Shown here piece by piece: positions 1,468-25,194 of a stretch of DNA of 35,277 nucleotides; within the stretch, counting starts at the first letter, position 1, and every line of letters begins with the position of its first letter. Origin of the DNA: a bacterium (GTDB lineage Bacteria > DYJV01 > JALVYZ01). The notes below the pieces were generated by a model, which was not told the origin of the DNA, ran no database searches, and worked only from the letters and a program-made list of their open reading frames with translations. The position numbers and the translations under genes were made by a program. The stretch lies in NCBI GenBank assembly GCA_027037705.1, contig JALVYZ010000237.1:1-35277 (forward strand). Reading direction: 5' to 3'.

Positions 1468-1487
1468 GTAGGAGGTGGCTCCTCTCC

Positions 1488-2519: not shown

Positions 2520-2575
2520 CAGCAAACTAGTCATTTCTACTACTCATCCACTATATCCTCTCGCCTCCTGTTCCT

Positions 2576-3448
2576 TTGCTTACGCGGCTATACATGCTGA
2601 TAGCCGAGGGAGGGCTAGCAAGGGCCTTGAAACCCGTCATGATAGTCAGCAAGGTTGAGCTAGCATGGGGGTTTAGCGTACGCTACGCCGGGTTATCGGC
2701 TGCCCAGCCCTCGCTCCCCCTACCACCACCCACTACCGTGATAGGGTTCTACGCGGAGCCCCTGGCAAGGCTCCTAGGGCTCCCCGAGTACGGCTTAGCG
2801 AAGCACTGTAGCCCCGCAGGCCTCCTTGCCAAGTACACACTTGGTGCTGCTGCCGGGCTTGACCCGGAGAGCCCCGTAGCCATTAGCGCCCATAGCGACG
2901 TGACGCGGGTGTTATCGCTACCCTATCAGAGGAAGAGGCGAGACTGGGAACCATATGCCTGGAGTGTACAAGCCCTGGGAGCAGCCTATGGCCCCGGGGC
3001 TAGGCTGTACCTAGGCATAGTAGTCGATGCCGAGGGCCTTGCAAGGGAAACCGGCGTAGACGCCGAGGAGCTAGCCGAGCCCATAGCGTGGGCGGGTTGG
3101 AGGCTTGGGTCCAAGGAGGGCCTCGTCTCGGTTCTTGAAAGCTTTGTAGGTGAGCCAGAGACCTTGGAGAAAGAATTTCCCTCAATTCTTTACCAGGAAG
3201 GAGACGTAGCAACCCCCCTCACAATGGGATCAGTTAAGACTATTACTATGTGGAGGCCAGAGCTAGGAGTCTTCTGTGGAGAGGTCACCCAGCCTACGTA
3301 TGAGGAGTACTTTGTGCCCACAAGCCCATACTCTACCCAGGTCTTGCTACTTCCTCCAAGCAAGCCTGTAGTATTCAAGCCCCGGGACTCTGTAGCTTAT
3401 TGTCTTGATACTGATAGGGGTTTATGCATAGCTGCTAAAGGTGTCTGA
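2576..3448 (+). CDS. cas5: Cas5a, type I-A
   Basis: 290 aa. QPSLPLPPPTTVIGFYAEPLARLLG matches the Cas5 N-terminal RAMP motif. Sits between cas7 and the large subunit. Confidence 0.8.
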   Translation: MLTRLYMLIAEGGLARALKPVMIVSKVELAWGFSVRYAGLSAAQPSLPLPPPTTVIGFYAEPLARLLGLPEYGLAKHCSPAGLLAKYTLGAAAGLDPESPVAISAHSDVTRVLSLPYQRKRRDWEPYAWSVQALGAAYGPGARLYLGIVVDAEGLARETGVDAEELAEPIAWAGWRLGSKEGLVSVLESFVGEPETLEKEFPSILYQEGDVATPLTMGSVKTITMWRPELGVFCGEVTQPTYEEYFVPTSPYSTQVLLLPPSKPVVFKPRDSVAYCLDTDRGLCIAAKGV

Positions 3449-3451
3449 GCA

Positions 3452-4585: not shown

Positions 4586-4591
4586 GGAGCC

Positions 4592-6322
4592 TTGAGGAAG
4601 CCCTGGGAGCGCCCCGGCATAGACAAGCTGGTAGAGAGTATTCGTAGGGGCTCTAGCACCGTCTTCGTTGCCCCGACAGGTTATGGGAAGAGCAAGTCGG
4701 TTCCAAGGCTCCTAGAGGAGAGCAGGAGTGCTGGCATCGCGGCCCGTGTAATACACGTGCTTCCACTGAGGGCTCTCGTCGAGCAACAGTTCATGTTCCT
4801 CAGGAGCCTCTTGGGGAGCCGCGTGGGGTTCCTCGCAGGGCTAAGGCTAGGCCACGGGGACTACTCCGGCTTCATGCTCCGCAAAGCAGTTGTCTCAACC
4901 CTTGACAGCTTCTCCCTCAACCTTGCCCGCCTACCCGTGGCGGAGCTCAGTGGCGTACTCCGAGACGTGTTTGAGGGCCACTACGAGCTCCCCCGCGCAG
5001 CTATTTTCTCCTCGCTAACGGTTCTCGACGAGGCCCATCTCTACGCCGAGCCCTGGGCAGAGGAGCCGCCACTATCAAGACTCTTCACGGAGCTAGTGCT
5101 GAGCGTGTTCTCGCGGGCAGGGCTACCAGTAGTGGTTGAGACCGCTACCATGCCCCGAGGCCTAGTGGAGAGAATAGCCAAGAAGACCCGTGGAGACATA
5201 ATCGCTGTCTGTAGGGACTGTTGCCACGACACAAGGTGCACCGCTATCCATGACAAGGAGTACGAGGAGGAGCAAAGCCTTGCTTGGAGAACAAGCCTAG
5301 TAGACAAGACCAGCGCGCTCCATCGGGCAAAGGAGCTAGCCGAGACTGGTAGAAAGGTACTGGTAAGCGTGAACACCGTGGGCTCCGCTATAGAGGCCTA
5401 TAACTACCTTGCCGAGCACCTGGGTAGAGAGGACATCGTGCTCGTGCACGGAAGACTTAGCGCAGCGGATCGCGAAGAAGCGGTCAAGAATATACCCGGG
5501 GCAAGGATCGTTGTGGCTACACAGGTTATAGAGGCAGGTGTAGACGTTGACGCAGAGGCCCTGGTCACCGAGGCGGCTACCCCTAGTAGCCTAGCCCAGA
5601 GAGCTGGGAGGCTATGCAGAGGCAAGGAGACACTCGAGAGGTGTAGAGAGGAGCCACCAGAGGTAATAATCTATGAGCCCGAGAAGCCCCACCCCTACGG
5701 GGATGCAGTCCCAGCTACATTGATCCAGTTAGAGAAACTCAAGCAGGTGGGAGACGGTGTCGAGTGGAGGCTCCTAGACGACCGGGTAGAGGATACTGGG
5801 AGGCTTAGGAGCTTCCGCGTACTAGTAGAGAGCGTTGAGGACAAGGCCTGGGAGAAACAAGTCCTAGGCAGAGAGCAAGTAGCCTACCTCAACCTCCTAT
5901 ACCTAAGCCTAACAAGCATCTCCAGGGCATCACCGAGGCCAGCAAAGCTACTACTCAGCCACTACTGCAGCCTCGTCCGAGACTCATCCCTCGTAACACT
6001 AGCGATCCCTCGGGATAAGGACGGCTACGACTACCTGGATACCAGCTTGGGCCTCCTAGCAAAGAAGGCTGATAAGATACTTGATTGTCGCGGTGATAGG
6101 TGCAGAGTATTGCTCATAGGTTATGGGGACGAGGTAAAGGAGGTAGAGGACACGGCTCCCCGGGAGAAGTTGCTAAGAGCACTACAGAGCTGCTCGTCGT
6201 ACATGAGTCTCTACCCTGGGCTCGTCGCCGAAGCGGCGAGAAGGCATGGGCTCCGAGGATACCAGCTCCTACCAGTCACGAGGCCCGGGGCCTATCTCAG
6301 AGGAATAGGGCTCGTGGCCTGA
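4592..6322 (+). CDS. cas3': Cas3' SF2 helicase
   Basis: 576 aa. Walker A is FVAPTGYGKSK and the DEAH box is VLDEAHLY. Helicase C motifs are VATQVIEAGVDVD and QRAGRLCR. Confidence 0.9.
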   Translation: MRKPWERPGIDKLVESIRRGSSTVFVAPTGYGKSKSVPRLLEESRSAGIAARVIHVLPLRALVEQQFMFLRSLLGSRVGFLAGLRLGHGDYSGFMLRKAVVSTLDSFSLNLARLPVAELSGVLRDVFEGHYELPRAAIFSSLTVLDEAHLYAEPWAEEPPLSRLFTELVLSVFSRAGLPVVVETATMPRGLVERIAKKTRGDIIAVCRDCCHDTRCTAIHDKEYEEEQSLAWRTSLVDKTSALHRAKELAETGRKVLVSVNTVGSAIEAYNYLAEHLGREDIVLVHGRLSAADREEAVKNIPGARIVVATQVIEAGVDVDAEALVTEAATPSSLAQRAGRLCRGKETLERCREEPPEVIIYEPEKPHPYGDAVPATLIQLEKLKQVGDGVEWRLLDDRVEDTGRLRSFRVLVESVEDKAWEKQVLGREQVAYLNLLYLSLTSISRASPRPAKLLLSHYCSLVRDSSLVTLAIPRDKDGYDYLDTSLGLLAKKADKILDCRGDRCRVLLIGYGDEVKEVEDTAPREKLLRALQSCSSYMSLYPGLVAEAARRHGLRGYQLLPVTRPGAYLRGIGLVA

Positions 6323-6327
6323 TAGCC

Positions 6328-7182
6328 ATGGCTCTCTACGCGTGGACCGGGGTAAGGCTTGGAGAGCATAGCTGCAACGTAGCCGGGCTACTACTGGGGC
6401 TCTTCGGCGAAGAACTAGGAGTGGTTGCTAGAAGGCTCGGCGTAAACACTGACCACTTACTTGTAGCAGCGGGGACAGCTGCACTCCTCCACGACGCTGG
6501 CAAGGCAGCGAAAAAGTTCCAAGAAACACTACGCAGCAGGAGACCGAGCTTCGTCTGCCACGAGCTAGTAGCCGGGAGCCTAGTCTACAACACCACCCAT
6601 GCACTACTAGCCGGGCTCGATGCAGGAAAGGAGGAGCTACTAGCAACAATAGCCAGCATAGCAGCGCTACGACACCACCACGCCATGAGGACCCTCGGCG
6701 AGTGCATAGACCTGGCAAAGAAGCAGAGAGTACCGGGCTTAAGCACAGAGGAAGTGATAGAGCTAGCAGCCGAGATAGAGGAGGCATGCCCCGAGGCAAC
6801 GACCCTAGCACTCGTGCTCCAAAGACTAGCCAGAGACTATACTCCCCTAGAAGGAGCCTCAGTAACAAGAAACGCTATACAAAGCCTCGAAGAAACACAC
6901 CACGTGAGCAAAGAACTACTCTCACTAGCAGCCTCAGCACTAACCGGGCTACTAAGCCTAGCAGACTACCTAGCAGCAACAACACTAGACAAACGAGCCC
7001 ATGATCCCAAGCCACAAGGATACACAAAACAAGTACTCAAAGAACTACAATACCTAATAACACCAGTACAGGGAACAACCCATCTAACCACAAAACTCCA
7101 AACAATAGCGCTCGAGGGGAGAAAGAAACTCGTACAACTACTCGAAGAAGCACTACAGGAAACCATTCTATTCCACTACTAG
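6328..7182 (+). CDS. cas3'': Cas3'' HD nuclease
   Basis: ATG at 6328 lies 5 nt after the cas3' stop. It has an HD-domain motif (ALLHDAGKAAKKFQ) and downstream His residues (ALRHHHAM). The listed ORF 6100..7182 is its unrealistic upstream extension into cas3'. Confidence 0.85.
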   Translation: MALYAWTGVRLGEHSCNVAGLLLGLFGEELGVVARRLGVNTDHLLVAAGTAALLHDAGKAAKKFQETLRSRRPSFVCHELVAGSLVYNTTHALLAGLDAGKEELLATIASIAALRHHHAMRTLGECIDLAKKQRVPGLSTEEVIELAAEIEEACPEATTLALVLQRLARDYTPLEGASVTRNAIQSLEETHHVSKELLSLAASALTGLLSLADYLAATTLDKRAHDPKPQGYTKQVLKELQYLITPVQGTTHLTTKLQTIALEGRKKLVQLLEEALQETILFHY

Positions 7183-7548
7183 GCCCCTATAACACAGCCA
7201 CAAAGCACCACAAAAACACACCATATAATCAGCACGACAAAACACGCCTACACAATACATATTTAGCTAAATCATCATTATAAAAATAGTACATGTTTTT
7301 ATAGATAAGTAAAGAATATAACGAAAAATAACCTAAATCAGCGCTACAAAACTTTCTTTTCTCTTGGGAACACTCCGTGGATGAATTTGAATGCTTCCTT
7401 GGGAACAACGTTTCGAATCCATACGAATCCATAGGAACACCTTCAGGGTCTCAGAATGCTCGATACACGGGAATTAGAGATGTGCCTAATAGCTTAAATA
7501 ACAAACTCATGCAGAGGCCTCATACAGACCCAAAAGGGAACCATACCA
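7183..7548 (+). promoter_or_regulatory. CRISPR leader 1
   Basis: The A/T-rich segment 7255-7340 is followed by about 188 nt (7361-7548) homologous to the other two leaders. A TATA-like ttaaataa at 7494-7501 sits about 48 nt upstream of repeat 1, and the conserved ...aaaagggaaccatacca abuts the first repeat. Confidence 0.75.
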
Positions 7549-8065
7549 GACATACTCAAAAGAGAACTGAAAGAATTTTATCAGCAAAGTCTTGTACTCT
7601 CTTTACTAGCTCGCTTCTGACATACTCAAAAGAGAACTGAAAGTAGTAATGACTCTCAACGGGTTCATGAGCCTAAGTATATCGCATGACGAGACATACT
7701 CAAAAGAGAACTGAAAGTATACCGAGCAAGAAAGCAACAATGTAGGGATTAGTAAGCGCCCGACATACTCAAAAGAGAACTGAAAGTCGAGGTACACGAT
7801 GAGCTTCATACCCGACTCTTTTACCTTTAGACATACTCAAAAGAGAACTGAAAGGGAACAGGGACGCGGGGCTTGCGGCCTCGTCGAGTGCGGAGCCCGA
7901 CATACTCAAAAGAGAACTGAAAGGTAGTATCTGGCCGATGGCGGCTCCTGGTAGATAGTCGGTGCCGAATGACATACTCAAAAGAGAACTGAAAGCATCA
8001 CTGTAGTTCTCCGTGCCCCTCTTCTTACATATCTCCAGCGACATACTCAATAGAGAAGTGAAGGT
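7549..8065 (+). CRISPR. CRISPR array 1: 8 x 25-nt repeats GACATACTCAAAAGAGAACTGAAAG, 7 spacers of 43-49 nt
   Basis: Repeats are at 7549, 7619, 7693, 7762, 7830, 7899, 7971 and 8041. The last (8041-8065) has 3 mismatches, so it is the degenerate distal repeat. With the leader on the 5' side and the repeat ending in GAAAG, transcription is on the plus strand. Confidence 0.97.
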
Positions 8066-8427
8066 CACCGTTGGGTTGACTTTGCTGGTATTCCTGGCAT
8101 CTTTCTTGGACATGTCTATGTTTGATTCAGTAAGGAATTTAAAGAAGTAAATACGGGAACAAGATTTGCGTGTCGAGTACTATTATTCGGTCAAGGTGCC
8201 TGGAAGAGGATTGTAAGGCTTGGCTCTGCTGGATTCTATAGCGTGTCGGTCTTACTGAGCTAAGTTTACGAATGCGGAGAAGGGGACGAGCAGGGCGGGA
8301 TAGGAGTTTAATTATGGGGAAATCTGTAGGGGGCTTGTGTAGATAGATGTTGGTTTGGGGAGTAATGCTGAGGAACTGGGGGATAAGGGGTATTGGTGGC
8401 GCTGAGGAGTTCGTGTGCGACCGTTAT

Positions 8428-9861
8428 CTATATTATCTTTATCTTTATATTGTCTGTGTTTTCTGCGAGGCCTATGGCGAAGGGGTAGACTGTTTGTGAG
8501 GCTCCCTGTAGCAGGGCGCAGACTTGCTCTCCTCTGTTCTCCGGGGCTCTATTGATGTGTTCTGCGACTTGTTTCCCCATGTACTCGTTTAGGTAGGGGT
8601 CGCTGTGTGTTAGGGGGAATATGTAGTAGTTCTTGCCCCTGTTCTTATTCTTTTTATTCATTATATCTACTGTGTTCTGGAGGTTTAGGAGCGTGTACGG
8701 CGTCCAAGCGATGTATAGTGGTTTTTCTCCGCCCAGTATCCTCCAGAGTAGCTCAACCACGTAGCCCGATGACTGACCCGTGAGCGTTATTACGGGGATG
8801 CATTTGTCCTCAACTATGTCGCCTAGTCCCTGTACGATGATGCTTAGTCTCCCGATAAGGGGCTCAGTCCTAATATCCTGTACTTGGAAATCCCTTACTC
8901 CGAGGAAATCGAGTACTTGTTTGTATATTGTCTTCTCGATTTCTAGTAGCTTGTTCTTAAGTTCTTCTAGCGAGTGCGTGGTCTTCTTTAGTACCTTTAG
9001 TACTTCCTTGGGGTTCCCGCCTCTATCTATTAGTGGTATTTCTTCTAGTATTTCTGAGAGATGCGAATACATCGATGTCATAGAATACATGTGCTCTAGG
9101 TATTTTGCTGCATCTAGATTCTCAGGCTGGATATCAGTAGGCGCTTCATCTCTTTTATCGAGTAGTTGTCTGATAGGGTCCGCGGCTATGCTGTGTAGTA
9201 GCTCGCCGCCTAGTGTCCCTCCCCACTTATAATGGAGTATGTTCACTAGGTAGTAGGTGACAAGGTCTATGAATAGGGCCATAATGCCCTTGGCGGCGGC
9301 ATCTACACTTACTTCTCCTAACATGTAGCCAGCTACTAGGTTCTGAGCAGCTGCTGCGTGGAGCTCGAAGCCTTGCCGGGTTAGGCCGGAGAGCAGGGCT
9401 GTTGCGAGAAGGGCTGCTGGGGGATCGCCGCCTAGCTCACTGGTACAGGTCTCCAGGGCAGCGCTGATACTCTTTCTGCGTATAGCTGCTAGGTTCTTCT
9501 GCACAGATAGGTGAGCCATAGCCATGTATCGCGGGTCATAAATTATATCGAGGGGTTTAGAGATAATATTCGCTATCACCGTGTCGCTAGGCAACGGTGA
9601 GAGAGGATAAGCCCGAAGATATAGTAAGGCCCTATTAAGAGCTATGGCGCCGGAGCCCTTTTCCCTGTGGCCTAGCCTTAGGCCGAGTAGCCTAGCAATC
9701 CTCGAGCCAAGGGCGATATGACCAATGTAGATAGCATCATCACTGCTATCCTTGTATCCTAGGTTATACCTCGTATAGCTGAGATACTTTAACAAGTACC
9801 CGAAGAAGTTTCCTCCACTACTGGGCTTGATTTCCAGGAGAAGCTGCTCCAACGCGACCAC
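8428..9861 (-). CDS. Hypothetical protein A (477 aa): helical N-terminal two-thirds, Rossmann/CARF-like C-terminal third
   Basis: Long ORF with a GGAGG 13 nt after the stop of the upstream gene. The antisense ORF is Ser-rich junk. The C-terminus has a beta-alpha pattern (VITLTGQSSG ... YYIFPLT ... VCALLQGASQTV) and an internal TRQGFELH (Rx5H). No confident family was assigned. Confidence 0.7.
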   Translation of the reverse strand: MVALEQLLLEIKPSSGGNFFGYLLKYLSYTRYNLGYKDSSDDAIYIGHIALGSRIARLLGLRLGHREKGSGAIALNRALLYLRAYPLSPLPSDTVIANIISKPLDIIYDPRYMAMAHLSVQKNLAAIRRKSISAALETCTSELGGDPPAALLATALLSGLTRQGFELHAAAAQNLVAGYMLGEVSVDAAAKGIMALFIDLVTYYLVNILHYKWGGTLGGELLHSIAADPIRQLLDKRDEAPTDIQPENLDAAKYLEHMYSMTSMYSHLSEILEEIPLIDRGGNPKEVLKVLKKTTHSLEELKNKLLEIEKTIYKQVLDFLGVRDFQVQDIRTEPLIGRLSIIVQGLGDIVEDKCIPVITLTGQSSGYVVELLWRILGGEKPLYIAWTPYTLLNLQNTVDIMNKKNKNRGKNYYIFPLTHSDPYLNEYMGKQVAEHINRAPENRGEQVCALLQGASQTVYPFAIGLAENTDNIKIKII

Positions 9862-9874
9862 ACCTCCCGGTTTA

Positions 9875-11197
9875 TTATTTACAGGAAGCGATTCTTCGCA
9901 AGGCGTCGCTGTCGCGGCCTAGACACCTAATGTACAAATGGTACGAGGTGTCCTGGGGTACTCTGAGCCGTCCTTCCTCGTCAACTACCTTTTTTACGTA
10001 GTTAGACGCCTTCATTGACTCAAACATCTTTCCTATATTGTTATTTTTAGTGTTTTTGTTGCTCGTTCTACTTAGTGCTATGAGGGTCTCGGGTATAAGT
10101 ACGAAGCATATATGCTCTATCCCCTGTATCCTCGTCAGGGTGCATATAATATTGTTTAGGAGTTGCTTGGAGTAGTCGTAGAGGGGTAGGAGATACACTG
10201 TCCTCGGCTTATAACCTGCTATAAGATCTCCTAGCTTGTCTTCCCTGTACTCTGAATCGATATTGGCAATGCATGCCTCCATATGGTGTCTATTTCTTAG
10301 CTCGGACTCTATTGTCTCCGATGACTCTTTTATGAGCTCGTTAGAGGCTATGAGTATCCTTAATACTCTTAGTGCTTTCGCCAGCCTAGCCGCCACGTCT
10401 ACTGCTTTGTGTATGGGTTTTTCCTCCGCAGATTTTTCCTCTGTGGATGACTGAGCAGCGGCTCTACGGTACTGTGGCAAAACCACTAGCACTCCTTCAT
10501 CAGCCTTGCTGATTTGCTTGGCCTCCTCGACAGCGTCTTGGATGAAATCGCTGGGTATGCACTCGTGGAGCCTGAGAGGATCCTTGCATGCCTTGTCGCC
10601 TTGGCCTCCTCGTTGACCAGACCGGAGTATCTCGGCTAAGTCACTCATAGCGCGCTCAGAGAGCTCGCTATTACTGAATAACAGCATGTAGTGTAGCGCG
10701 TTGACTAGCTCCGGGCAGCACTTGGCTTCCTCGAAGAACTGGTTTACGAGGGCTTTTTCCAGCCCCCCCTGCCCACTACTGTTTTCTTGTAGGCAGCACT
10801 TAAGGAGCTGCTCGAAGGAGTCGGCTGGCAGCCTTACCGGGGTTCCTAGGGGCAGCTGCTTATTGAAAGCATCTCTGTGCTCACTCTTGAGCATGTAGAC
10901 CGGGCTAAGCCCTAGGTCGGGGTCGCGTGCCGCAACCTTCCGTGTCTCATTAGCTCCGCTGACCTCTTCTACTAGCAAGTAGGTGTGAAATCCGTTCCCG
11001 CAGTCAAGCTCTACTATTAGGTCTATTTCGCGTAGTGCCTCGCTGAGAATATAGGCGAGCTGGGGAGGAAAGACGTTCACAGATGGTGCGCAGTAGGTTA
11101 CTTTGTACCCCAGTATAGTGCAGTCACTATTCGAGGTAGACAACGCTCTGCAGCCTCTCTTCCTATACCCCTGGTCAAAAATATAAATACTTTCCAC
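9875..11197 (-). CDS. Hypothetical protein B (up to 440 aa)
   Basis: Long ORF co-oriented with protein A, 13 nt apart. The GTG at 11197 is doubtful because a TATA-like gtatttatattttt (11177-11190) lies inside its first codons. An in-frame TTG at 11143 is a plausible real start. No family was recognised. Confidence 0.65.
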   Translation of the reverse strand: MESIYIFDQGYRKRGCRALSTSNSDCTILGYKVTYCAPSVNVFPPQLAYILSEALREIDLIVELDCGNGFHTYLLVEEVSGANETRKVAARDPDLGLSPVYMLKSEHRDAFNKQLPLGTPVRLPADSFEQLLKCCLQENSSGQGGLEKALVNQFFEEAKCCPELVNALHYMLLFSNSELSERAMSDLAEILRSGQRGGQGDKACKDPLRLHECIPSDFIQDAVEEAKQISKADEGVLVVLPQYRRAAAQSSTEEKSAEEKPIHKAVDVAARLAKALRVLRILIASNELIKESSETIESELRNRHHMEACIANIDSEYREDKLGDLIAGYKPRTVYLLPLYDYSKQLLNNIICTLTRIQGIEHICFVLIPETLIALSRTSNKNTKNNNIGKMFESMKASNYVKKVVDEEGRLRVPQDTSYHLYIRCLGRDSDALRRIASCK

Positions 11198-11227
11198 TCT
11201 CTTCTAGATACCTTTCTCGGTGCAGGT

Positions 11228-11656
11228 GTGAGCGAAGTGCCAAAGGCAATAGTTATTGGAAGGCATAGGATGATGCCAGCCCAGGTAGAGGAGCTCCGAG
11301 AGAAAGGCATAGACGCGATCGAGCAGGTAGCGAAGATAGAAGAGGACGAAATACCGCAGCTCGTGGAGACGTGGGCCAGGAACGATGTGAGATACGTAGT
11401 TATCCAGGCACTACCACTAGCACTCCTATACAAGCTGTTCCGGGAGGCAAGGAAAGCAGGCATAGATCTAATAATAGCTTGGATGGATACAGTCGCGGTA
11501 ACAGAGGACGAGGAAGAAGCAAGGAAACTAGTCCAGGAAAAACCTGATAGGAGAACTTACCTCAAAGCACCAGGCGACAAAGCCATAAGAGTCATCGAGC
11601 ACAGGAAATGGATGAAGATAAAAAGGCTAGAAGTAGAGCTAGAACCCCTACAATAG
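11228..11656 (+). CDS. Hypothetical protein C (142 aa), small alpha/beta protein
   Basis: E/K/R-rich, coding-like composition, whereas the antisense ORF 11098..11463 is Ser-rich junk. Divergent from B and convergent with D (5-nt gap). aaaatataaatac at 11177-11190 lies about 40 nt upstream. Confidence 0.6.
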   Translation: MSEVPKAIVIGRHRMMPAQVEELREKGIDAIEQVAKIEEDEIPQLVETWARNDVRYVVIQALPLALLYKLFREARKAGIDLIIAWMDTVAVTEDEEEARKLVQEKPDRRTYLKAPGDKAIRVIEHRKWMKIKRLEVELEPLQ

Positions 11657-11661
11657 GACAA

Positions 11662-12363
11662 CTAATCATCGGCAAAAACAACGCAAACCGGGCCAACATC
11701 GCTGCCTAGCTCGATATACTTAACCCCACCATTCTCTTCCATTATGCTGCTACACAGCGAGCCCTCCCTATCACAGAAAAGGGCTACACTGATACCAGCA
11801 CGGAGCCTCCCATACATGTTTCTGAGCCCATCCACTATACACTCTATAGCGCTGATAACTCGTTGGCACTTGTCGCTATGCCTAGCTCCCCTATAGCACC
11901 GCTGAACCATGTTGACGAGATCCCTGCACTTGATACGAGGGTTAAACAAGCAAATAGTATTCTCCTTTATAACGAATTCCCCTAGCAGGGACACTACTCT
12001 TCCAATGAACCCTAGTTCATCCGGATAAGTTTTGCATATATATTGGACTCTCTCGAGACAGCGAGCCGCCAGCTTAGCGGACGAAGCAGCTTCTCCAAGA
12101 TTAGGGAAAATTATTGCAGCACCATAGCCTCTAGGAGACCCTGCAGTATATGCCTGGGTCACTTTTACCAGTTTCCATAAACCTTTTGACCAGTCTTTGC
12201 CGCTGAATATTTTGTTAAGTGATTCGCAGGCTTCACGAGCATAGTTCTTATCAATCCTGCAGTCCTGTGCTGAGGGGTCGCTGTGCTTGTTGCACAGGTT
12301 AAACACATCTAGGTCAATGATGTAGACGTAGTTCTCGGTAATGTCTCTATTGGGGTTGGTCAA
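11662..12363 (-). CDS. Hypothetical Cys-rich protein D (233 aa), last gene of a three-gene overlapping operon
   Basis: Start overlaps the ATPase gene by 17 nt. It has 13 Cys. N-terminal YVYIIDLDVFNLCNKH and downstream VKVTQAYTAGSPRGYGAAIIF weakly resemble a palm/cyclase fold (see findings). Confidence 0.65.
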   Translation of the reverse strand: MTNPNRDITENYVYIIDLDVFNLCNKHSDPSAQDCRIDKNYAREACESLNKIFSGKDWSKGLWKLVKVTQAYTAGSPRGYGAAIIFPNLGEAASSAKLAARCLERVQYICKTYPDELGFIGRVVSLLGEFVIKENTICLFNPRIKCRDLVNMVQRCYRGARHSDKCQRVISAIECIVDGLRNMYGRLRAGISVALFCDREGSLCSSIMEENGGVKYIELGSDVGPVCVVFADD

Positions 12364-13531
12364 AGCTCTTTTCCTCCGAGGAATGCTGCGAGAGGGCTAG
12401 TGCCTCGGCGAGAGCAAAGGCGGCATAGGGCCTCTGCTCGTAGCGGAAGGCCCTCTTTGCGCGGCTGAAGCGAGCGTAGTACACTGTAGCGTTGAAGCGG
12501 GATGCACCGCTAACAATGTAGGGCGAATGGGTAGTTAGGACAACCTTAACTTCCTTCCCGTTGCCTTGTAGTAGCCTTATGTATCTGCCAAGGATATATG
12601 CGAATAGGAATTGTTGCGGGGGAGAAAATGCTTCCTCGGGCTCCTCTATAACCGCGACTATTGTATTCTCCCTCTGCGCGAAGACATAGGGCAGAATGCC
12701 TAGCAGCAAGTAGGACGCCACCGACGAGGAAACCACGTCCGGGGGCACCGTGGCTGTAAGCCTATTGTCTTGTACTAGGAGAGCTAGGCTCCCGAGATCT
12801 ATTGATAGCGCGGGTTTTCCTACGTGGCCCGTATCCGATATGGTTACGTCGACGCTTAGGGGGATAAGGTCCTCTGCGGATATTTTCTCATCAATGTCTC
12901 CCAGTAGCTCGTTAAGTGCGTCCACTGCTCTTTCGATGCTCTCTTCTTGGGCATCTAAGAGCTTCTTCAGTAGCCATGGGTTGGCCCTAGCCTTGTATAT
13001 TAGTGCCTCGGCTAGTAGTGGGTGCATGAAGCCCCGGAGAACATTACCATGGTTCTTGATGTGTTGCTGCAGGTCTTTGCAAAGCTCTTTGAGTTCCTGC
13101 ATCCTGTTTGATTCTTCCTCGGGTATGTACACGGATAAGGAGTCAATCATATTACACAACGTGCCGACATCTTGCTCTATTCCCTCAATGCTCTCACTGA
13201 TGCTTTTCTCGAGGACAAGGCTCTGGCGCAGCACTATGCGGTAATCAGGCGCCATATATGCTACAATATCGCTTCCCAAATCCCCCCTAATTTCCCCGCC
13301 CGCGTAGCATAGGTTGCCGCGCGATGCATGTAGGCATACAGAGGCATTGTCTTTCCGCCATAGTCTATCGAGTTCGTTTACATCCCGGCTGGCAAGAGCA
13401 TATATTGTTCTAGCTATTATAGACTTACCTGTGGAGTTGAAGCCAGCAATCACTGTATAATCGTCCACCTCTAGTTTGAAGTCATCGCCGAAAAGCTTAG
13501 AGCCCGTTACTTCAAGCAACCATTTACCCAT
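12347..13531 (-). CDS. ABC-type (AAA_21/AAA_15-like, SMC/RecF-class) ATPase, protein E
   Basis: 394 aa. Walker A is AGFNSTGKS (aa 29-37), with a helical insert after it. It has a signature-like VSSSVASY, Walker B VAVIEEPEEAF and an H-loop VLTTHSPYI. Confidence 0.8.
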   Translation of the reverse strand: MGKWLLEVTGSKLFGDDFKLEVDDYTVIAGFNSTGKSIIARTIYALASRDVNELDRLWRKDNASVCLHASRGNLCYAGGEIRGDLGSDIVAYMAPDYRIVLRQSLVLEKSISESIEGIEQDVGTLCNMIDSLSVYIPEEESNRMQELKELCKDLQQHIKNHGNVLRGFMHPLLAEALIYKARANPWLLKKLLDAQEESIERAVDALNELLGDIDEKISAEDLIPLSVDVTISDTGHVGKPALSIDLGSLALLVQDNRLTATVPPDVVSSSVASYLLLGILPYVFAQRENTIVAVIEEPEEAFSPPQQFLFAYILGRYIRLLQGNGKEVKVVLTTHSPYIVSGASRFNATVYYARFSRAKRAFRYEQRPYAAFALAEALALSQHSSEEKSFDQPQ

Positions 13532-14028
13532 ACTCCTCTTCCTCGGGGAAACCAGGGAATAACTAGCGGGGAAAGAATAAATACATCTCCAAGGAGTCCC
13601 TCGTTGAGAAAGATGCTGTGTACAATCTGGTGAAGCATCATATCCCTCGCTAGCTCTATCGATGCAGTAAAGCAGCCCCTTCTACGCTTTACCGAGAACC
13701 TCCTACCACCCTCTAGCACACCGTATGCCCTGGTACAGAGGACTAGGCTACTGCACCCAAGCACTATACTCCTCACGCTGGTCTCTGGGCAACGTGAAGG
13801 CTCCGTAAAGACTATCAAGCCTAGTTCTCTACTAGGGCCACACACCCACGTGCTAGGCATGAGAGGAGAGACCCCGGCCTCGATAAGCCTCAGTACAAGC
13901 TCTACGAGGCTCTCTAATCTACTGCATCCAAGTATTGTGAGCCCCCGCTTTACCTCTATGCTGCACTCTGCGAGATGTCTCCCTATGGCTTTGGGCTCTT
14001 CTACGCGGCCGTATACGAGTAGGGGCAC
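13507..14028 (-). CDS. Hypothetical protein F (173 aa), first gene of the F-E-D operon
   Basis: GTG start. The 3' end overlaps the ATPase start by 25 nt. No motif was recognised. Confidence 0.5.
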   Translation of the reverse strand: MPLLVYGRVEEPKAIGRHLAECSIEVKRGLTILGCSRLESLVELVLRLIEAGVSPLMPSTWVCGPSRELGLIVFTEPSRCPETSVRSIVLGCSSLVLCTRAYGVLEGGRRFSVKRRRGCFTASIELARDMMLHQIVHSIFLNEGLLGDVFILSPLVIPWFPRGRGVWVNGCLK

Positions 14029-14130
14029 CGAGTCCTTGTTCTCTATTCCTATCCCCGCTATCTTGGCCCCTATTATAGACCACCATGAAGTATAAATATT
14101 TATACTCTGGATAAAGACTATAAAGTAGCG
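14029..14130. promoter_or_regulatory. Divergent promoter region with palindromic TATA element
   Basis: A perfect 16-bp palindrome gtataaatatttatac lies at 14090-14105, between the divergent F-E-D operon (start 14028) and the type III operon (GTG 14131, about 30 nt downstream, consistent with a leaderless mRNA). A second box, ctataaag, is at 14118-14125. Confidence 0.55.
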
Positions 14131-14586
14131 GTGCCTCCGTCCTTGGCCTCAACTACTAGAGCCATAGATTATTACTCGGCGCGGTCCTGCAGGAGCCTCT
14201 GGCTCGATAGAACTGTACAGTACCTTAGCAGTAGTAATGTCAATGAGGTTAATCTGGTTGAGTACGTTCTAAGGGGGCGGTTAACCAATATAGCTAGCTC
14301 GCCCTCAGCTGCCCGCAGGATACATGAGGCTGCTATTAGTATTCTTGACCGTATCGCGCAGGGGAGGTATGGCAGCGAGATATTCGCTGAGCTCGCTGGT
14401 CTCGAGGTCTTTGCCCGTTACCAGGCCGAGCGCAAGCAAATCGATAAATGCCTAGCCGACATCGTCGCTGATGTTGTAAGAATGCTTGCCGAGCTAATAC
14501 GCAGCGGCGATCCTAGTGTTAAGCGTGTTGCGCGGAGGGCTCGTCTCGTCTTCGATTCCCTAATAGTGGGTGTAAGGCCGCGCTAA
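14131..14586 (+). CDS. Putative type III small subunit (Csm2/Cas11-like)
   Basis: 151 aa, predicted helical C-terminal half, first gene of the Csm-like operon. The call rests on size and position only. Confidence 0.35.
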   Translation: MPPSLASTTRAIDYYSARSCRSLWLDRTVQYLSSSNVNEVNLVEYVLRGRLTNIASSPSAARRIHEAAISILDRIAQGRYGSEIFAELAGLEVFARYQAERKQIDKCLADIVADVVRMLAELIRSGDPSVKRVARRARLVFDSLIVGVRPR

Positions 14587-14600
14587 GAATAGCAAGAGGG

Positions 14601-15593
14601 GTGTGTTGCCCCGTGAGCCAGTCTGAGTTCTTCTCTCTGAAGAGGCGTCTCCTGGGCTTCTACGAGTTCGAGCTAAGTGTTAGGGTTAGGACGGGTCTCC
14701 TTATTCGCAAGCCTAGCCAGGCCCAGCTAAGTATAGGCGGCGCCGATGTATGGCCTATGAGTATTGAGCGCTACTATGAGTGCGGCAACGAGAGGCTTGG
14801 TGTAGAGGTGCCGTATATACCTGGCTCGAGCCTGAAGGGGCGTATGAGGAGTCTCTTGGAGCAAGCTCTTGGAACGGAGTACGTCACTACTGATGGTAAG
14901 ATATTCCAGCATGTCCGTAGCATTGATGCATTCTTCCGTAGCTATGTTGATGAAGTAGAGGCGCGCCACAAGTTCATGGAGGATGTCTTGAATAGGTGCC
15001 CGGTTGACGAGGTCTTTGGCTATGCAAGCTTTAACTACTTGCAGCACCTCCGGGGCAAACTACAGCTAGAAGAGAATAGTGCCAAGAAGCTAATGGAGTA
15101 TCTTGCCCCGACACGTCTCTATGTCGAGGACCTCTACCCGGATGAGGGCTATGTGTGCAAGCTCTATAAGCGCCTTGAGCGCCAGGTTTATCTAAGTGAC
15201 TTCTTGGAGGAGAAGCCCGAGAACAGAATCGATAGGTTGACTGCTGCAGCGGATCCTCGTCTCTCTGTCCGCGTTAAGCCCGGTGTAGTGTTCAGGGGGC
15301 GTATACAGCTACTAGTCTATGATAACGACTGCGAGGCTTGTCCCAGCGAGGAGCAGCTATGCGTCGAGAGGAACCTGGGCCTCGTTATCCATGGGCTTAG
15401 GCTCGTTGAGTCCCTGGGCCTCGGTGCTGCTACTAGCCGTGGCTACGGTAGGGTCGGGATTAGTGTAGAGCGGCTAGTGTTCTACGAGGCTCCTGGTCTC
15501 GAGGGGAGAGAGCTACTAGGCAAGCCAACGCCCGTCACCGAGCTAGAGCCCAGTAGCGAGATTGTTGCAGCTGCATGCCCTAGTAAAGGGTAG
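14601..15593 (+). CDS. csm3: Csm3-like Cas7-family RAMP (type III backbone)
   Basis: 330 aa. It has VPYIPGSSLKGRMRSLLEQ, EVFG, ENRIDRLTAAADP and a G-rich loop LGLGAATSRGYGRV. A candidate catalytic Asp is in SIGGADVWP. Confidence 0.85.
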   Translation: MCCPVSQSEFFSLKRRLLGFYEFELSVRVRTGLLIRKPSQAQLSIGGADVWPMSIERYYECGNERLGVEVPYIPGSSLKGRMRSLLEQALGTEYVTTDGKIFQHVRSIDAFFRSYVDEVEARHKFMEDVLNRCPVDEVFGYASFNYLQHLRGKLQLEENSAKKLMEYLAPTRLYVEDLYPDEGYVCKLYKRLERQVYLSDFLEEKPENRIDRLTAAADPRLSVRVKPGVVFRGRIQLLVYDNDCEACPSEEQLCVERNLGLVIHGLRLVESLGLGAATSRGYGRVGISVERLVFYEAPGLEGRELLGKPTPVTELEPSSEIVAAACPSKG

Positions 15594-15601
15594 TTGAGGC
15601 C

Positions 15602-16609
15602 TTGAGCACATCTTCTCCGCCGACGAGGCGCTACCTATACGTTGTGGTTGAGTTTAGGTCCCAGTTTAGTAGCTATTCTCCGAGCCTTGCCGAGGGCTAC
15701 ATAGGCTCGACGAGCCTGCATGCAGCCGTAATGGCTGCTGTAGCTATGCTGGGCCACGGCATTAGTGATGGGCTGGCCGAGGCGAGGTTTTCCTCCCTGC
15801 TACCAGTGGCCCGGGGTAGTAGCGGCTACGTTGCTCTCTTTCCCCCGCTACGGCTACCTAGCTATGGCAAGGTTCCCCGCGGCTTCTGGACGCCCCGTGC
15901 AGTATCCCTGGTACTGTCCGTGCTTAGTAGTTGCTCGGGGAGAGGCGCCGATATCGTCCTGGAGAGAGGCGGGGATAACTATGTTGTAAGGTGTATGGAT
16001 GGGGGCGAGTCCCGGGAACTGGTATACTCTCGGGAGACCGGGGTCTTCGCGGCGCCTGGCGAGCAGCTAGATTTTAGGCCACCGGGGTTCCGTAGCGATA
16101 GGCATAGGCTCGTTATCAGCAGGGTTACTTACAGCGCTACGCCCTTCATGATACCAGTTGTTGAGCCTAGGAGCCCGTACTGGTTCGTAGCAGAGCTACG
16201 GAGCGAGCAGCTATGCGGCACCGTGGTAGAGGCGCTGAGGCTAGCCGAGCACCTCGGAATGGGGGCTCATAGGAGCATAGGGCTCGGGAGAATAAGGATA
16301 ATTAGCTATGAGTGCACAGAGTCGCCGCCAAGCTTCCTAGCAGGTAGCCGGGGAGGCGGCATCGGGGTATCACTGGGCCTCCTCTACCCCGAGCAGGGGA
16401 GCTGTAGTGTCTACTACGGCGAGACTGCCTTGTTCGGTGCTTATCGGGGCTACGGCGGTGTGGTGATTAGCTTCCGGAGGCCCCTGGTAAGGGCACTTGC
16501 CCCCGGCAGTATTGTTGGAACCGATTGCAGGGGGCGGGTCATTAGGGGCAATGGTTATCCCTACGTGTATTCGTTCAATCCCATTGTGTATCCGGTTGCC
16601 CCTGTGTAG
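15602..16609 (+). CDS. csm4: Csm4/Csx10-like Cas5-family RAMP (type III)
   Basis: 335 aa. N-terminal YLYVVVEFRS...IGSTSLHAAVMAAVAMLG resembles the Csm4 SDTLFSAL region. The C-terminal G-rich loop is EHLGMGAHRSIGLGRIRI. Confidence 0.7.
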   Translation: MSTSSPPTRRYLYVVVEFRSQFSSYSPSLAEGYIGSTSLHAAVMAAVAMLGHGISDGLAEARFSSLLPVARGSSGYVALFPPLRLPSYGKVPRGFWTPRAVSLVLSVLSSCSGRGADIVLERGGDNYVVRCMDGGESRELVYSRETGVFAAPGEQLDFRPPGFRSDRHRLVISRVTYSATPFMIPVVEPRSPYWFVAELRSEQLCGTVVEALRLAEHLGMGAHRSIGLGRIRIISYECTESPPSFLAGSRGGGIGVSLGLLYPEQGSCSVYYGETALFGAYRGYGGVVISFRRPLVRALAPGSIVGTDCRGRVIRGNGYPYVYSFNPIVYPVAPV

Positions 16610-16624
16610 CGAGGCATAGGAGCC

Positions 16625-17746
16625 ATGGAGCAGAGTAGTTATAGGCTATTGCTGAGACCCCGTACACCGCTCCACGTAGCCTCCGGGGAGAAGACGGTCA
16701 TAGGCATAGACTCGGTGATACACTACGGGAAGCTCTACGTAGTGGACGTTGAGTGCACTGCGAGAATATATGCAAAGCTCTACGGCGCCGAGGCCCTCCT
16801 AGCCAGTAACGCCCGAGCCATAGACCTCTTTAGAAGAGTTCTCGGCCGATACAGGCCCGGGGTTCTTAGCTGCACCCCCTACCGCCTAGTAGTCGGGCTA
16901 AGAACGAGAACGCCACCCCGTGGCGCCGAGGTCTCGCTTCCACAGAGCACCCTAGTACCGGGCTCGAGCATTAAGGGCGCTCTACGCACGGCACTACTCT
17001 ACGCCCTCGTGGACGCCGAGCCTAGGGAAGCCTTGGAGAGGATTAGGAAAGGGGTATCCAGGATAGTCCCGGGCCAGCCCCGAAGCCTACTAGGAGCCGC
17101 TGACCCCGTGGAACAGCTCCTAAAAGGCTCAAAGCCCCACGGCAGGGGTAGGTTCATCTACGATGCTGCCCGCCTCCTCGCAGTTAGCGACCCCCTGCGC
17201 CACAGGGCCTCCCTAGGGCTCTACGCTTTTCGGACGATACACGTTAACGACGGCCGCCCGGTTAGCCTAGAGTACGTCGTCGCCCTGGACCCCGGCGCGG
17301 AGATAGAGTATGAGCTGAGGCTCTACAAGCCCTCCTACAACACGCCTGTGAAGCAGCCTTGGATAAAAAGCCTACAGGAAAAAGACAAGACAATAAGCAT
17401 CGATACCCTGCTCCGGGGCCTCGCCCTGTTCTCGGAGACCCAGATAGCGAGCGAGCTCGAGAGAATAGGTGAGCGCTTCCCGCGGTACAAGAGCTTCCTA
17501 GAAGACCTGGGGAAAATGAGAAGCAGGAACTGTTTTCCACTACGCCTCGGCTACGGCGCAGGCCATGCATCGAAGACCCTCCTACCATGGCTGAGGCGAC
17601 GCGACCCCGGGCTCGCCAAGCGGCTCGAGGAGCTACTCTCGCGGCACTATGGCCGCGTATGGGATAGTCTCACAGATACCTTCACCGATCACAACGGCTC
17701 CCTCCTCGGCGTGGGCTGGGCCACACTCTGCATAGAGGAGAGGTGA
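16625..17746 (+). CDS. csm5: Csm5-like RAMP (type III)
   Basis: 373 aa. It has LLLRPRTPLHVASGE, LVPGSSIKGALRTALLYAL and a G-rich RLGYGAGHASKT. Its stop overlaps an ATG (tgATGa) at 17744-17748. Confidence 0.75.
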   Translation: MEQSSYRLLLRPRTPLHVASGEKTVIGIDSVIHYGKLYVVDVECTARIYAKLYGAEALLASNARAIDLFRRVLGRYRPGVLSCTPYRLVVGLRTRTPPRGAEVSLPQSTLVPGSSIKGALRTALLYALVDAEPREALERIRKGVSRIVPGQPRSLLGAADPVEQLLKGSKPHGRGRFIYDAARLLAVSDPLRHRASLGLYAFRTIHVNDGRPVSLEYVVALDPGAEIEYELRLYKPSYNTPVKQPWIKSLQEKDKTISIDTLLRGLALFSETQIASELERIGERFPRYKSFLEDLGKMRSRNCFPLRLGYGAGHASKTLLPWLRRRDPGLAKRLEELLSRHYGRVWDSLTDTFTDHNGSLLGVGWATLCIEER

Positions 17747-17749
17747 TGA

Positions 17750-20700
17750 GCCCTGGTTGGCAGGATTGAGGAGGTAGCGCTACACGGCCTACTACACGAT
17801 ATCCATAAACCCCTTGCTAGGCTGCTTCAAGTCTATAGAGGATGCGACATAGGAGAAATAGCTAAGAGGATAGCTGAAACGGCGCGGGGCTATGAGCTAG
17901 GAGACGAAGATATAGAGGGCTTCAAGGACTACGTAATCAAAGTCCTAGAGAAGGTTGAGGAGAATGGCCACGGGCTGCGCAGAAGCCTCGTCAACGAGTT
18001 CGCCAAGGATTCGAGCGAGCCTAGGGACTTGATAGAGGTCGCTATAAGGCTTGCCGACGAGGAGTCGGGGCTAGAGGACATAACGACCAGGATTGCGAAC
18101 TCCTCGCTAGAACCGCATCTCACTCCATTCCTCAACCCTCTCGCCCTGCTATTCGCCTCCGGGTTCTCCAGCCACGACGTTGCCGAGCTAAACCTAGATG
18201 ACGCCAGCATAGTGATGAGTAGTGATAAGCGTAAGTGCCTATTAATGACTAGCCAGTGGTGCAGGCAGAGACTACAAGAGTTCCTAGAAAGGGTTGAGAG
18301 AAGCGATACAGCGGCACTAAGAAGCATCCTTGGCGGCAATCACTGGCACCCAGTGAGGCCGCTTAGGTGGAAAGAGCCTAGCAGAGCCGAGGAGATCTCA
18401 GCGCTCTACGGTGCCCGAGGCTATAGGGAGGCAATCGTGGACTACACTAGTGTCGCGGCAAGCTTGTTGGCGGGGCTCTATAGGCTCAGAGCTGCTACGA
18501 GGAGCCTAGGCAACCGCCTCGACACTGTTAGGTCGCTGCTAGGGGTGCTCCGTCGCAGCCTCCTCCTGGTACCCTCGAGTATCCGTAAGGGCTCCTCGGG
18601 GCTAGCCCTGCCAGAGATAAGCCTCTATGCCCATAGCCGCGTAGTGGCTGGCTTCGCCTCCGCCATAGCTGCTACTGGGAGGAGCCCGGGCTGCTACAGG
18701 CTTGTACTTCTAGACATAAACGGTATACAGCGCTACATAACTAGGCACCGCGTAGTAAGCGCAGCGGTGAAGGCTTTTCGTGGCAGAAGCCTCCTAGTAG
18801 AGCTCGCCCAGAGAGCCGCTGCGAACTTCGTCTTATCGAGACTGGGTCTTGCCTGGAGCAGTGTCTACACATACGAGGGAGGCACGGTATCGATAATAGC
18901 GCCGTGCACCGAGAAGCTCGAAGAAGTACTAGGAGAGCTCGAGGAGAGGTTCAGCGAGGAGTTCGGGGGATACCTCGGAGTAACAGCTGTTGCTAGCCGG
19001 GAGCTAGAGGTAGGGCCGGGCACGTATAGCTCGAGGTACAGGTTCCGCCCCGAGGACGAGAACAGCTTTGCCCACGTCCTCTCGGAGACGCAGCGCATGC
19101 TCTCAGCCAGGAAGCTCAAGAGACAGACACATAGCCTAGAACAACTAGGGCCCGAGGAGCTCGAGTACGACCCCCTCGTGGAGGAAAACACGCCCCGGAG
19201 AGAATACGTGGGAGTAAGCGGTGAGCTAGGCGCTGAGTACTGGAGACTAGTCTCAAGCGACGACGCGGCAGCAGCCATAGTCGAGCACGGCGGGGTTTCA
19301 AGGGATACTCATAGAGCCCTCGTAGCTGGCAGTAGCGCCCCAAACCTGTTCATGATAATAGAGCTCTACTTGAGCGGCGATGGCTGCGAGAAAGCCATCG
19401 AGGAACTAGCAGGGAGGGTAGCTGAGGCACTACTCGGCTCCAAGGAGAGACGCTACGATATAATCCCTATTCATCGCGGCCAGGAGCTAAGAATAGGGAT
19501 TATAGAGCTACCAAAACTATGCACGGTATACATACTGTTAGCGTTGCACACGCTTAGCCCGGAGCAGAGCATTGACTGGAGACTCGTGGAGACAATCATG
19601 GGTATGCTGGCTGAGAAGCCCCTAGATGGTAAGGAGCTAGGGATAGAGGAGGCGCTCATAGTGTTCTCGTCGGTGAACATTGTTGAGGAGTTCCTACCCA
19701 GCGAGGAGACGGTGAGAAACCTGGATAACCATGTAAGGAGCTGGCTGAGAGGAACTAGGTACAGGATAGGCTTCGACTGGGTAGCAATCAATACACGCTA
19801 CCCCCTAGTGCAGGGAGAACACCGGGTCCAGATAAGGAGCCTAGACGAGGCAGCAGAGGCCACCGGGCTCATAGCCCTAGTCAAGCTCGATGCAGACAAC
19901 GTGGGCAACACCGTATTCTACATGGCATCCTCTCCCTCGAGGCTAGCAACGCTAAGCGAGATCCTAGCAACTACCTTCGGGCTCCTAAGCTACAAGCTAC
20001 TAGACCTAAGCAGCAACTACAACGACAGTGTATACGTCGTGTTCATAGGAGGCGACGACGCAGCCTACTTCGGCGAACTAGTAGCAGCAATGCAGTACGC
20101 CACGGACATAACGCGCCTAGCAAACTCGATGCTCCCAGGACTCACGATAAGCGGGGCAATAAGCATAGAGGAGCCAAAGCTCCCCCTTTATCTAGCTTAT
20201 TACCACGCACTAGAGCGCCTAGAAAAAGCAAAGAACGAGCCAATAATAGTACTAGGAGGCAACGAGCCAAGAGGCATAGTAGCAATAACCCAGATGACAA
20301 AGCCAATAACACTCTGCCTCAGAGAAGACGACACAAAGAAACCCGTAAAGATAGAGACAATAAGCTGGCAAACACTAGAAAACACACTACGAGAACACCA
20401 ATCAATAAGCGACGAGACCCTATGGAAGAGGACAGCAAAGCTAGTAACCCTAGTAGCGGACACGCTCGCAGAGATAATGAAGAAGCAAAAATGCAGCCTC
20501 ACCGGCACAGAGACAGCTAGAACCCTAATAGCGTATACATACTGGCGCGAAAGAATAGGCCAAGCACCAGGCCAAGAAGAAAACAACGTAGACAAAATAC
20601 TAGAGAAAATAACGGGCACCAGGCCGAGATACCCACCAAGCCAGCCAAACAACACCAAGGAACGATACAGGCTCTACACAATACTACAACTAGCCAGAAA

Positions 20701-25188: not shown

Positions 25189-25194
25189 CTACTC

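Follow-up and report, generated by a model that had tools for sequence, protein, structure and literature searches.

Next to crenarchaeal type III CRISPR-Cas cassettes (CRISPR, short palindromic repeats that are clustered and regularly interspaced), a RecF-domain ATPase of ~330 amino acids (aa) has been described that is "always associated" with proteins of ~160 to 180 aa lacking database matches (Vestergaard 2014, RNA Biol 11:156; PMC3973734, Table 5). In a later survey, this kind of protein appears as cluster 17, the SMC ATPase Cas_RecF of ~330 aa, and the cas_RFas genes make up clusters 83, 84, and 108, with cluster 83 having the top Cas-association score of all clusters (Shah 2019, RNA Biol 16:530; PMC6546367). 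The function of Cas_RecF/RFas is given in neither paper, and we found no later literature on it. Here, we examine an island of six genes, A to F, at positions 8428 to 14028 of contig JALVYZ010000237.1 (assembly GCA_027037705.1), where it is located between type I-A and type III-A-like cas genes; the complete contig of 35,277 nucleotides (nt) is hereafter called the window. We propose that the island represents two independent type III CRISPR-Cas accessory modules positioned side by side, one of them (genes F, E, and D) built around a pair of the Cas_RecF/RFas type and the other (genes C, B, and A) shared in part with viruses. We assign a probability of about 0.6 to this reading, its functional part included.

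The first module, F-E-D (positions 11662 to 14028), diverges from the type III operon, and its features are as follows.

11662 to 12363, minus strand: gene D, open reading frame (ORF) of 233 aa
12347 to 13531, minus strand: gene E, ORF of 394 aa
13507 to 14028, minus strand: gene F, ORF of 173 aa
14029 to 14130: divergent intergenic region between F and csm2, with A/T boxes, among them TATAAATATTTATA at 14092 to 14105
14131 to 20752, plus strand: type III-A-like operon csm2-csm3-csm4-csm5-cas10, the downstream context of the island, followed by two more CRISPR arrays

Genes E and D overlap by 17 nt, and genes F and E overlap by 25 nt. The A/T boxes between F and csm2 may serve as promoter elements, judging from their sequence.

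A metagenome scan with the alignment of the E family, in which E-like genes were gathered by homology alone, added 26 loci. We treated a locus as informative if it had at least 1 kb of flank upstream of the E-like gene, and 25 loci other than the window qualified. In every one of them (25/25), the E-like gene (22 to 45% identity) is located 30 to 666 bp from a csm2-like gene that heads a csm2-csm3-csm4-csm5-cas10 operon. The two genes are divergent in 24 loci and co-directional in one (L008), where E, D, and csm2 follow each other on one strand. The link extends beyond a single type III subtype, because the cassette of one locus (L005) is III-D-like. We conclude that the linkage of the E-D pair to type III operons is very strong, and that it extends across III-A-like and III-D-like cassettes.

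The pair shares several features with Cas_RecF/RFas. It combines a RecF/SMC-type ATP-binding cassette (ABC) ATPase of 322 to 394 aa, immediately beside crenarchaeal type III cassettes of more than one subtype, with one or two small proteins of 150 to 230 aa that always come after the ATPase and match nothing in databases. E and D are very probably type III accessories of this catalogued type. Of the island that an earlier note, made from the sequence alone, had called uncharacterized, it is thus the A-B-C trio for which we found no description. The window pair nevertheless differs from the published one in several respects. It is a divergent branch, with E only 25 to 37% identical to the other lineages sampled; its P-loop is the canonical GxxxxGKS, whereas most relatives have GxNxTLKS; and D is ~60 aa longer than a typical RFas protein. 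In addition, the window lacks the second RFas gene that usually comes after D, and the unrelated small gene F is found upstream of E instead.

Gene E is the only member of the island with a family that can be named, as the earlier note had recognized: it matches Pfam AAA_15 (E value, 5e−13) and AAA_21 (8e−9), and the Pfam, NCBIfam, and PADLOC searches of all six proteins returned matches for E alone. The protein has a Walker A motif (G30-FNSTG-K36-S37), a helical insertion (residues ~100 to 260), a signature-like motif (S268-SSVAS), a Walker B motif (V-I-E296-E-P-E-E300), a P304-PQQ motif, and an H-loop (T333-THSPY). Across 17 members of the E family (322 to 394 aa), GxNxTxKS, the signature-like SxxxA, EEPEE, PxQQ, TTHSPY, and the helical insertion are kept. 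In most of the collected Cas_RecF-type proteins, the second glycine of Walker A is replaced by Leu (or Ala), and the window lineage has the canonical GFNSTGKS; Walker B reads EEPEE, not DEPE, throughout the collected family. On these motifs, E is classified as a RecF/SMC/OLD-like ABC-type ATPase that keeps the catalytic Lys, Glu, and His, and, because the motifs are conserved, the E-family proteins are probably active ATPases. Distant homologs of E include P0012 (35% identity) and P0013 (27% identity), and cluster look-ups gave only the names "hypothetical protein," "AAA family ATPase," and "OLD family." Locus L014 (positions 2 to 253 and 9980 to 10942) has, besides the copy adjoining csm2, a second, partial E-like gene at its far end beyond cas10.

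A D-like gene directly follows the E-like gene, by overlap or after a short gap, in 29 loci, as detected with a hidden Markov model of the family, and a second small gene with an ELWLSC motif, forming a "third-gene" family, is also present in 17 loci. Conserved residues of D are D17, with which the first hydrophobic strand ends, C24, H162, C175, and C197, and this Asp and Cys/His set looks like a candidate metal site. No member of either small family has a Pfam or PDB match. The N-terminal "hhhDLLxL" strand of D had suggested a PIN-like nuclease by eye, and we dropped this idea because no search supported it. Genes of the third-gene family are also seen at L014 positions 903 to 1403 and at L016 positions 773 to 1273.

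Since none of the other E-D loci that we collected contains A, B, or C, the island consists of two modules with differing distributions, and the earlier note's single six-gene cassette does not hold. The second module, C and the divergent pair B-A, occupies positions 8428 to 11656.

8428 to 9861, minus strand: gene A, ORF of 477 aa; probable start at TTG 9852 (474 aa), based on homologs and gene calls
9875 to 11197, minus strand: gene B, ORF of 440 aa; start moved to TTG 11143 (422 aa), based on homologs and gene calls
11144 to 11227: intergenic region between B and C, 84 bp, with A/T box CAAAAATATAAATA at 11176 to 11189
11228 to 11656, plus strand: gene C, ORF of 142 aa

The stop of B and the start of A are separated by 13 nt, and GGGAGGTG lies in this gap. 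The 84 bp across which B and C diverge are a putative bidirectional archaeal promoter, given the box they contain. In both modules, the layout that had been read from the sequence, with a B-A operon, C divergent from it over an A/T box, and overlaps among F, E, and D, is correct.

The trio was found on one unrelated contig, L034, where cmr2-cmr3 is followed by two opposite-strand genes encoding 563 and 561 aa, a C-like gene divergent from these two, and a gene encoding 257 aa without a family match. The 563-aa protein, A′, aligns with A (BLASTP E value, 5e−28; 26% identity over 493 columns). The 561-aa protein, B′, has a weak but collinear similarity to B (BLASTP E values, 2e−4 and 1e−3) that reaches 3e−30 in jackhmmer after one iteration. 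The C-like protein, C′ (P0014), is the closest relative of C, with 60% identity. The trio, therefore, recurs in the same arrangement inside a type III-B cassette. Together with the 25 E-D loci, this recurrence bears out the association with CRISPR accessory or defense genes that the earlier note had proposed from the position of the island inside a cas supercluster.

Genes A and B have very few relatives: among 5.8 billion clusters, we found three proteins for A at an E value of ≤1e−3 and only four for B. Neither protein, considered as a candidate CARF-domain effector of the Csx1/Csm6 type, has a Pfam, NCBIfam, or PADLOC match (E value of ≤1) or a PDB profile match, and PDB sequence and profile searches with A, B, E, the D family, and the A family yielded nothing meaningful. 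Pfam searches of the distant homologs (A′, B′, the D-like proteins, the third-gene family, and 43 members of the C family) were also without a match. A is large and mostly helical, with a conserved C-terminal alpha/beta domain (TLTGQxxG, YTLLNL, and CAxLxGAxxTxYP) that it has in common with A′; two of its motifs, TLTGQxxG and LxGAxxT, resemble CARF loops by eye only. The AlphaFold2 model of B, built from a four-sequence alignment, had a predicted local distance difference test (pLDDT) score of 33 and was discarded. A and B were also compared with each other as possible paralogs, and this was rejected because the BLASTP similarity was not significant.

Gene C belongs to a protein family of which an exhaustive HMMER search of 1.84 billion representatives recovered 50 clusters (at 50% identity) of ~140-aa proteins, in which R12-H13 is invariant and Q19, L62-P63, and A98 are nearly so. 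C has no similarity to the third-gene family. Its AlphaFold2 model (pLDDT, 95.5; predicted template modeling [TM] score, 0.85) has a beta-alpha Rossmann-like core, a long beta4, and a C-terminal hairpin. A Foldseek search of the PDB with this model revealed no close fold; the best TM scores were ≤0.44, mostly to generic Rossmann or periplasmic-binding lobes. Among CARF and ring-nuclease structures, Cam1 bound to cyclic tetra-adenylate (8t65) matched the model with an E value of 1.6e−3 and a TM score of 0.38, and Sso2081 was at rank 49 (TM score, 0.35).

Relatives of C are also found in viruses. Viral models in BFVD match the C model with E values of 7e−10 and 2e−7 (TM scores, 0.70 to 0.76). 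ATSV_A144 of Acidianus tailed spindle virus (ATSV; KU645528) and ALG97006 of Sulfolobus monocaudavirus SMV3 score ~70 bits each against the C-family profile, and phrog_31280 is a further match (4e−5). The two viral genes were reached by tblastn from family member P0020 only; with window C or P0024 as the tblastn query, phage records gave no match, and single-protein scans of viral contigs with C and P0024 found nothing. C homologs without A or B are also present on two contigs of putative viral or mobile nature, judging from their appearance (L036/L037 and L039). On locus L038 (positions 8823 to 10414), a C-family gene diverges from a gene encoding a PLD-family (PLDc_2) nuclease, in an island that also encodes DUF499, PD-(D/E)xK, and N6/N4 methyltransferase proteins and has no cas genes in view. 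Its layout, in which a small C gene and the gene of a putative effector diverge, is that of the window. ATSV_A144 (L040, positions 979 to 1413) is the first forward gene after an annotated stem-loop cluster at the start of the circular record; this neighborhood could be an origin or early region, which would be of interest if the protein were an early anti-defense factor.

The closest described counterparts of C are the ring nucleases Crn1, Crn2/AcrIII-1 (DUF1874), Crn3/Csx3, and Crn4. Like them, C is small, highly conserved, and stand-alone, is found both beside type III cassettes and, as a lone gene, in viruses infecting the same host group, and, as modeled, combines a nucleotide-binding-type (Rossmann-like) fold with an invariant basic/His pair. 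However, C has no sequence match to any of them, the structural similarity to CARF is marginal (TM scores, 0.35 to 0.38), and some C homologs occur in non-CRISPR defense islands. Neither sequence nor fold places C in the CARF, DUF1874, Csx3, or Crn4 families. A second parallel is provided by the host antitoxin homologs captured by Sulfolobales viruses, such as the Phd-like gp44 of SMV1 (PMC11065993): there, too, a small host protein next to a putative effector has a stand-alone homolog in the Bicaudaviridae. The family ADG.17/arCOG10132 described in that study is Phd-like and pairs with Doc toxins, whereas C has another fold and other partners. An identification of the C family with ADG.17 itself was rejected, because ADG.17 is Phd-like and the ATSV and SMV3 accessions are not in the supplements of that study.

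Several of these observations weigh against our proposal of two type III accessory modules. Loci related by descent share their context, so the 25/25 linkage of E-D partly reflects co-inheritance of cassettes. The Cas_RecF/RFas identity, in turn, follows from matched descriptions and not from a sequence alignment with named members such as P186_0874/0873, VMUT_1481/1493, TTX_1229, and Pcal_0278. For the second module, linkage to type III systems is seen in only two independent lineages, the modeled C resembles CARF and ring-nuclease structures only weakly, and the homologs on L038 and the virus-like contigs indicate that C needs neither A, B, nor CRISPR. Finally, the searches that we ran detected no fold for D, F, A, or B. 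We consider that A-B-C has an even chance of being a functional type III accessory module. The gene identities, synteny, and distribution described here are observed, and the biochemical roles discussed below are conjectural.

For the first module, the likeness to PARIS, Septu, Gabija, and OLD, in which an AAA_15/AAA_21 ATPase with a helical insertion is also accompanied by a small partner in an overlapping operon, is the basis of a sensor-plus-effector working model. By analogy with these systems, a dimer or oligomer of E would be an ATP-dependent sensor or clamp that holds or activates D, which would be a metal-binding effector subunit. E-D would be expressed together with the Csm complex, from a promoter region that it has in common with csm2, and may act on the target of Csm, be it nucleic acid at a protospacer under transcription or an inhibitor with which a virus blocks the Csm complex. 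Its role would be that of an auxiliary or back-up arm in type III immunity. F would be an extra small subunit confined to the genus-level lineage. For the second module, B and A would be co-transcribed and may form a heteromeric ancillary effector, and C, presumably transcribed from the other strand of their promoter region, could be a nucleotide-binding or nucleotide-degrading regulator that behaves toward B-A like a ring nuclease or an antitoxin. Bicaudaviruses would then carry C homologs as stand-alone anti-defense genes, by analogy with Crn2/AcrIII-1, Crn4, and the viral antitoxin homologs. We put forward these specific mechanisms with low confidence. A narrower conjecture, which we regard as a long shot, is that C, as a GRHxLLPxQ-family protein, represents a new class of cyclic-nucleotide degraders or sequesterers that in cells resets B-A, as a novel two-subunit type III effector, and serves bicaudaviruses as an anti-CRISPR or anti-defense protein, while Cas_RecF/RFas is an ATP-driven guard that fires when Csm is engaged or inhibited.

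The same likeness suggests an alternative, in which the island genes form autonomous, CRISPR-independent defenses that happen to be near cas genes, E-D being an abortive-infection pair similar to PARIS, Septu, or OLD and C with B-A a toxin-antitoxin-like unit. The best PADLOC matches of E, AriA (1e−13), PD-T4-4_A, GajA, and PtuA, point in this direction, as do the annotation of one E-family member as an "ATP-dependent endonuclease of OLD family," the C homolog beside the PLD-family nuclease with no cas genes visible, and the documented viral capture of host antitoxin homologs in Sulfolobales viruses (PMC11065993). However, the matches of E to the PARIS, Septu, Gabija, and OLD models fall mainly in its C-terminal half and are far below family cutoffs, and the effector domains of PARIS (DUF4435/TOPRIM), Septu (HNH), and Gabija (TOPRIM and UvrD) are not detectable. 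In particular, no AriB-type effector as in PARIS is detectable, with D and F lacking any Pfam or PADLOC match at an E value of ≤1; NCBIfam PtuA scores 17.9 bits against a cutoff of 500, and neither D nor F has an HNH match as in Septu; and, compared to Gabija, E ends after the H-loop region, the GajA models cover residues 287 to 360 only, and the island has no helicase. Moreover, these systems are free-standing, whereas the E-like genes, although collected by homology, adjoin a type III operon at its csm2 end in all 25 informative loci, usually sharing a promoter region with it, and RFas clusters have the top Cas association in complete-genome surveys (PMC6546367). Autonomous defense is possible for C, given L038, and hard to square with the 25/25 linkage for E-D; for the island as a whole, we consider it unlikely and prefer the two type III accessory modules.

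The genes of both modules are conserved in related contigs. The whole island is syntenic in L004, a metagenome-assembled genome (MAG) contig labeled Pyrodictiaceae archaeon, where the order is csm4-csm3-csm2, F-E-D, C, B-A, and cas3″-cas3′-cas8a-cas5-cas7; parts of it are found in L001, L003, and L006, and the order of A, B, and divergent C is kept in L001, L003, and L004. Between the window and L004, the ratios of nonsynonymous to synonymous divergence (dN/dS) are 0.07 for C, 0.13 for E, 0.22 for D, 0.31 for A, 0.42 for B, and 0.47 for F. Because dN/dS is below 1 for all six, they are genes and not chance ORFs, and the six ORFs of the earlier note are all present where it had placed them. The island genes are real and under purifying selection, with A, B, and F confined to a narrow lineage. 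The synonymous divergence (dS) from L004 is a mosaic: it is 1.1 to 1.4 in cas8a and cas3′, 0.5 to 0.64 in D, E, and csm2, and 0.24 to 0.30 in A, B, C, F, and csm3. This mosaic suggests that the I-A module differs in history from the island and type III part, through recombination or module exchange.

The gene for which this conclusion is weakest is F. It is absent from distant loci and fills the spacer between E and csm2, which is 598 bp in the window lineage and 30 to 280 bp in other lineages. An alternative is that F arose by chance as an ORF spanning a long leader or divergent promoter. Such an origin would agree with F not being called as a gene on L006, with the lack of a homolog beyond the genus-level lineage and of any family or profile match, and with the highest dN/dS of the six genes. 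Yet the ORF is 522 nt long and free of indels in all three lineages that have it (the window, L004, and L006; 80 to 82% aa and 87% nt identity), the synonymous changes are most common in F's own frame, its dN/dS is clearly below 1, and its 25-nt overlap with the start of E is of the kind seen in translationally coupled operons. F has no clear relation to the other small proteins of the module, with hhalign E values of 0.011 to 0.013 over 20 columns only against the ELWLSC family and of 0.51 against the D family. We regard a chance ORF as improbable; F is probably a gene, as its frame conservation suggests, and is a small protein specific to the genus-level lineage of the window.

In base composition, the island is set apart from its surroundings, as had been noted by eye: its GC content is 0.496, compared to 0.534 for the contig and 0.53 to 0.60 for the flanking cas genes, so that the island genes are ~4 to 8 GC points below the latter. 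The GC content at third codon positions (GC3) is also mostly lower (0.51 to 0.57, compared to 0.59 to 0.70 in most flanking cas genes), with cas3″ (0.50) and csm2 (0.54) as exceptions. The difference is genuine, though modest. Horizontal acquisition, which the earlier note had proposed on this ground, is weakly indicated: the lower GC content and the mosaic dS speak for it, but no integrase, transposase, or att-like feature was seen. The most improbable alternative is that the island, or at least A-B-C, is a passive remnant of an integrated virus or plasmid between two cas modules, with no immune role: the GC and GC3 values below those of the flanks, the C homologs in ATSV, SMV3, and virus-like contigs, the recombination or module exchange to which the mosaic dS points, and the scarcity of relatives of A and B would fit it, but all genes are under purifying selection, the trio recurs in a type III-B cassette at 26 to 60% identity, synteny with cas genes is kept in four related contigs, and we noticed neither an integrase or transposase nor an att-like repeat or tRNA gene in the island, although no dedicated scan was run.

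Upstream of the island, the window contains the following features.

289 to 960: csa3, encoding a regulator with a CARF domain
1102 to 8067, plus strand: type I-A interference genes csa5 (1102 to 1467), cas7, cas5, cas8a, cas3′, and cas3″, together with array 1
7549 to 8067: CRISPR array 1, with 8 repeats

The location of the island between array 1 and the type III operon holds in the window contig, the only one in which an array separates cas3″ from A. The corresponding stretches of L001 (2371 to 2941) and L004 (7739 to 8316) are ~570 bp long and lack the repeat core altogether. L005, whose type III cassette is a different one, has this core, ACTCAAAAGAGAA, in at least three copies downstream of its D-like gene. 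In Cas10 of the window (18029 to 20752), the GGDD cyclase motif is intact (residue 674), and residues 50 and 51 may form an HD motif. The 35-kb contig has no recognizable Csx1, Csm6, CARF, or SAVED effector except for the CARF-bearing regulator Csa3, and the island genes are therefore the sole candidate ancillary effectors nearby. It also has no recognizable cas6, cas1, cas2, or cas4, and an Rfam search of the whole window matched nothing.

Downstream of the type III operon, two further CRISPR arrays (20875 to 21600 and 23645 to 24175) are in opposite orientation, and their repeats vary slightly in sequence (…GAGTTAAGC, its reverse complement GCTTAACTC…, and GACATACTC…). Between them is a PaREP1-family gene (22710 to 23240; Pfam E value, 2e−13). 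PaREP1 is typical of the Thermoproteales, and the MAG closest to the window is labeled Pyrodictiaceae. A PIN-domain (VapC-like) gene at 26248 to 26679 is preceded by an overlapping ORF of 106 aa (26639 to 26959), with which it likely forms a VapBC toxin-antitoxin pair. Several ORFs near the PIN-domain gene (24608 to 25825 and 27044 to 30500) have no family match.

Cas_RecF/RFas is among the strongest published CRISPR associations and was first described more than 10 years ago. The ~30 loci assembled here provide a broader alignment of the family, the catalytic residues of the ATPase, and a mutable set of Asp and Cys/His/Cys/Cys in its partner. The A-B-C trio, for which, as for the virus-shared C family, we found no earlier description in the literature, is in our view the part worth following up, as a possible addition to the ancillary modules of type III systems without a Csx1/Csm6 effector. 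Because the model of C is very confident, has no close solved relative, and represents a protein shared with Sulfolobales/Acidianus viruses, C is a cheap candidate for a ring nuclease, a nucleotide sponge, or an anti-defense protein.

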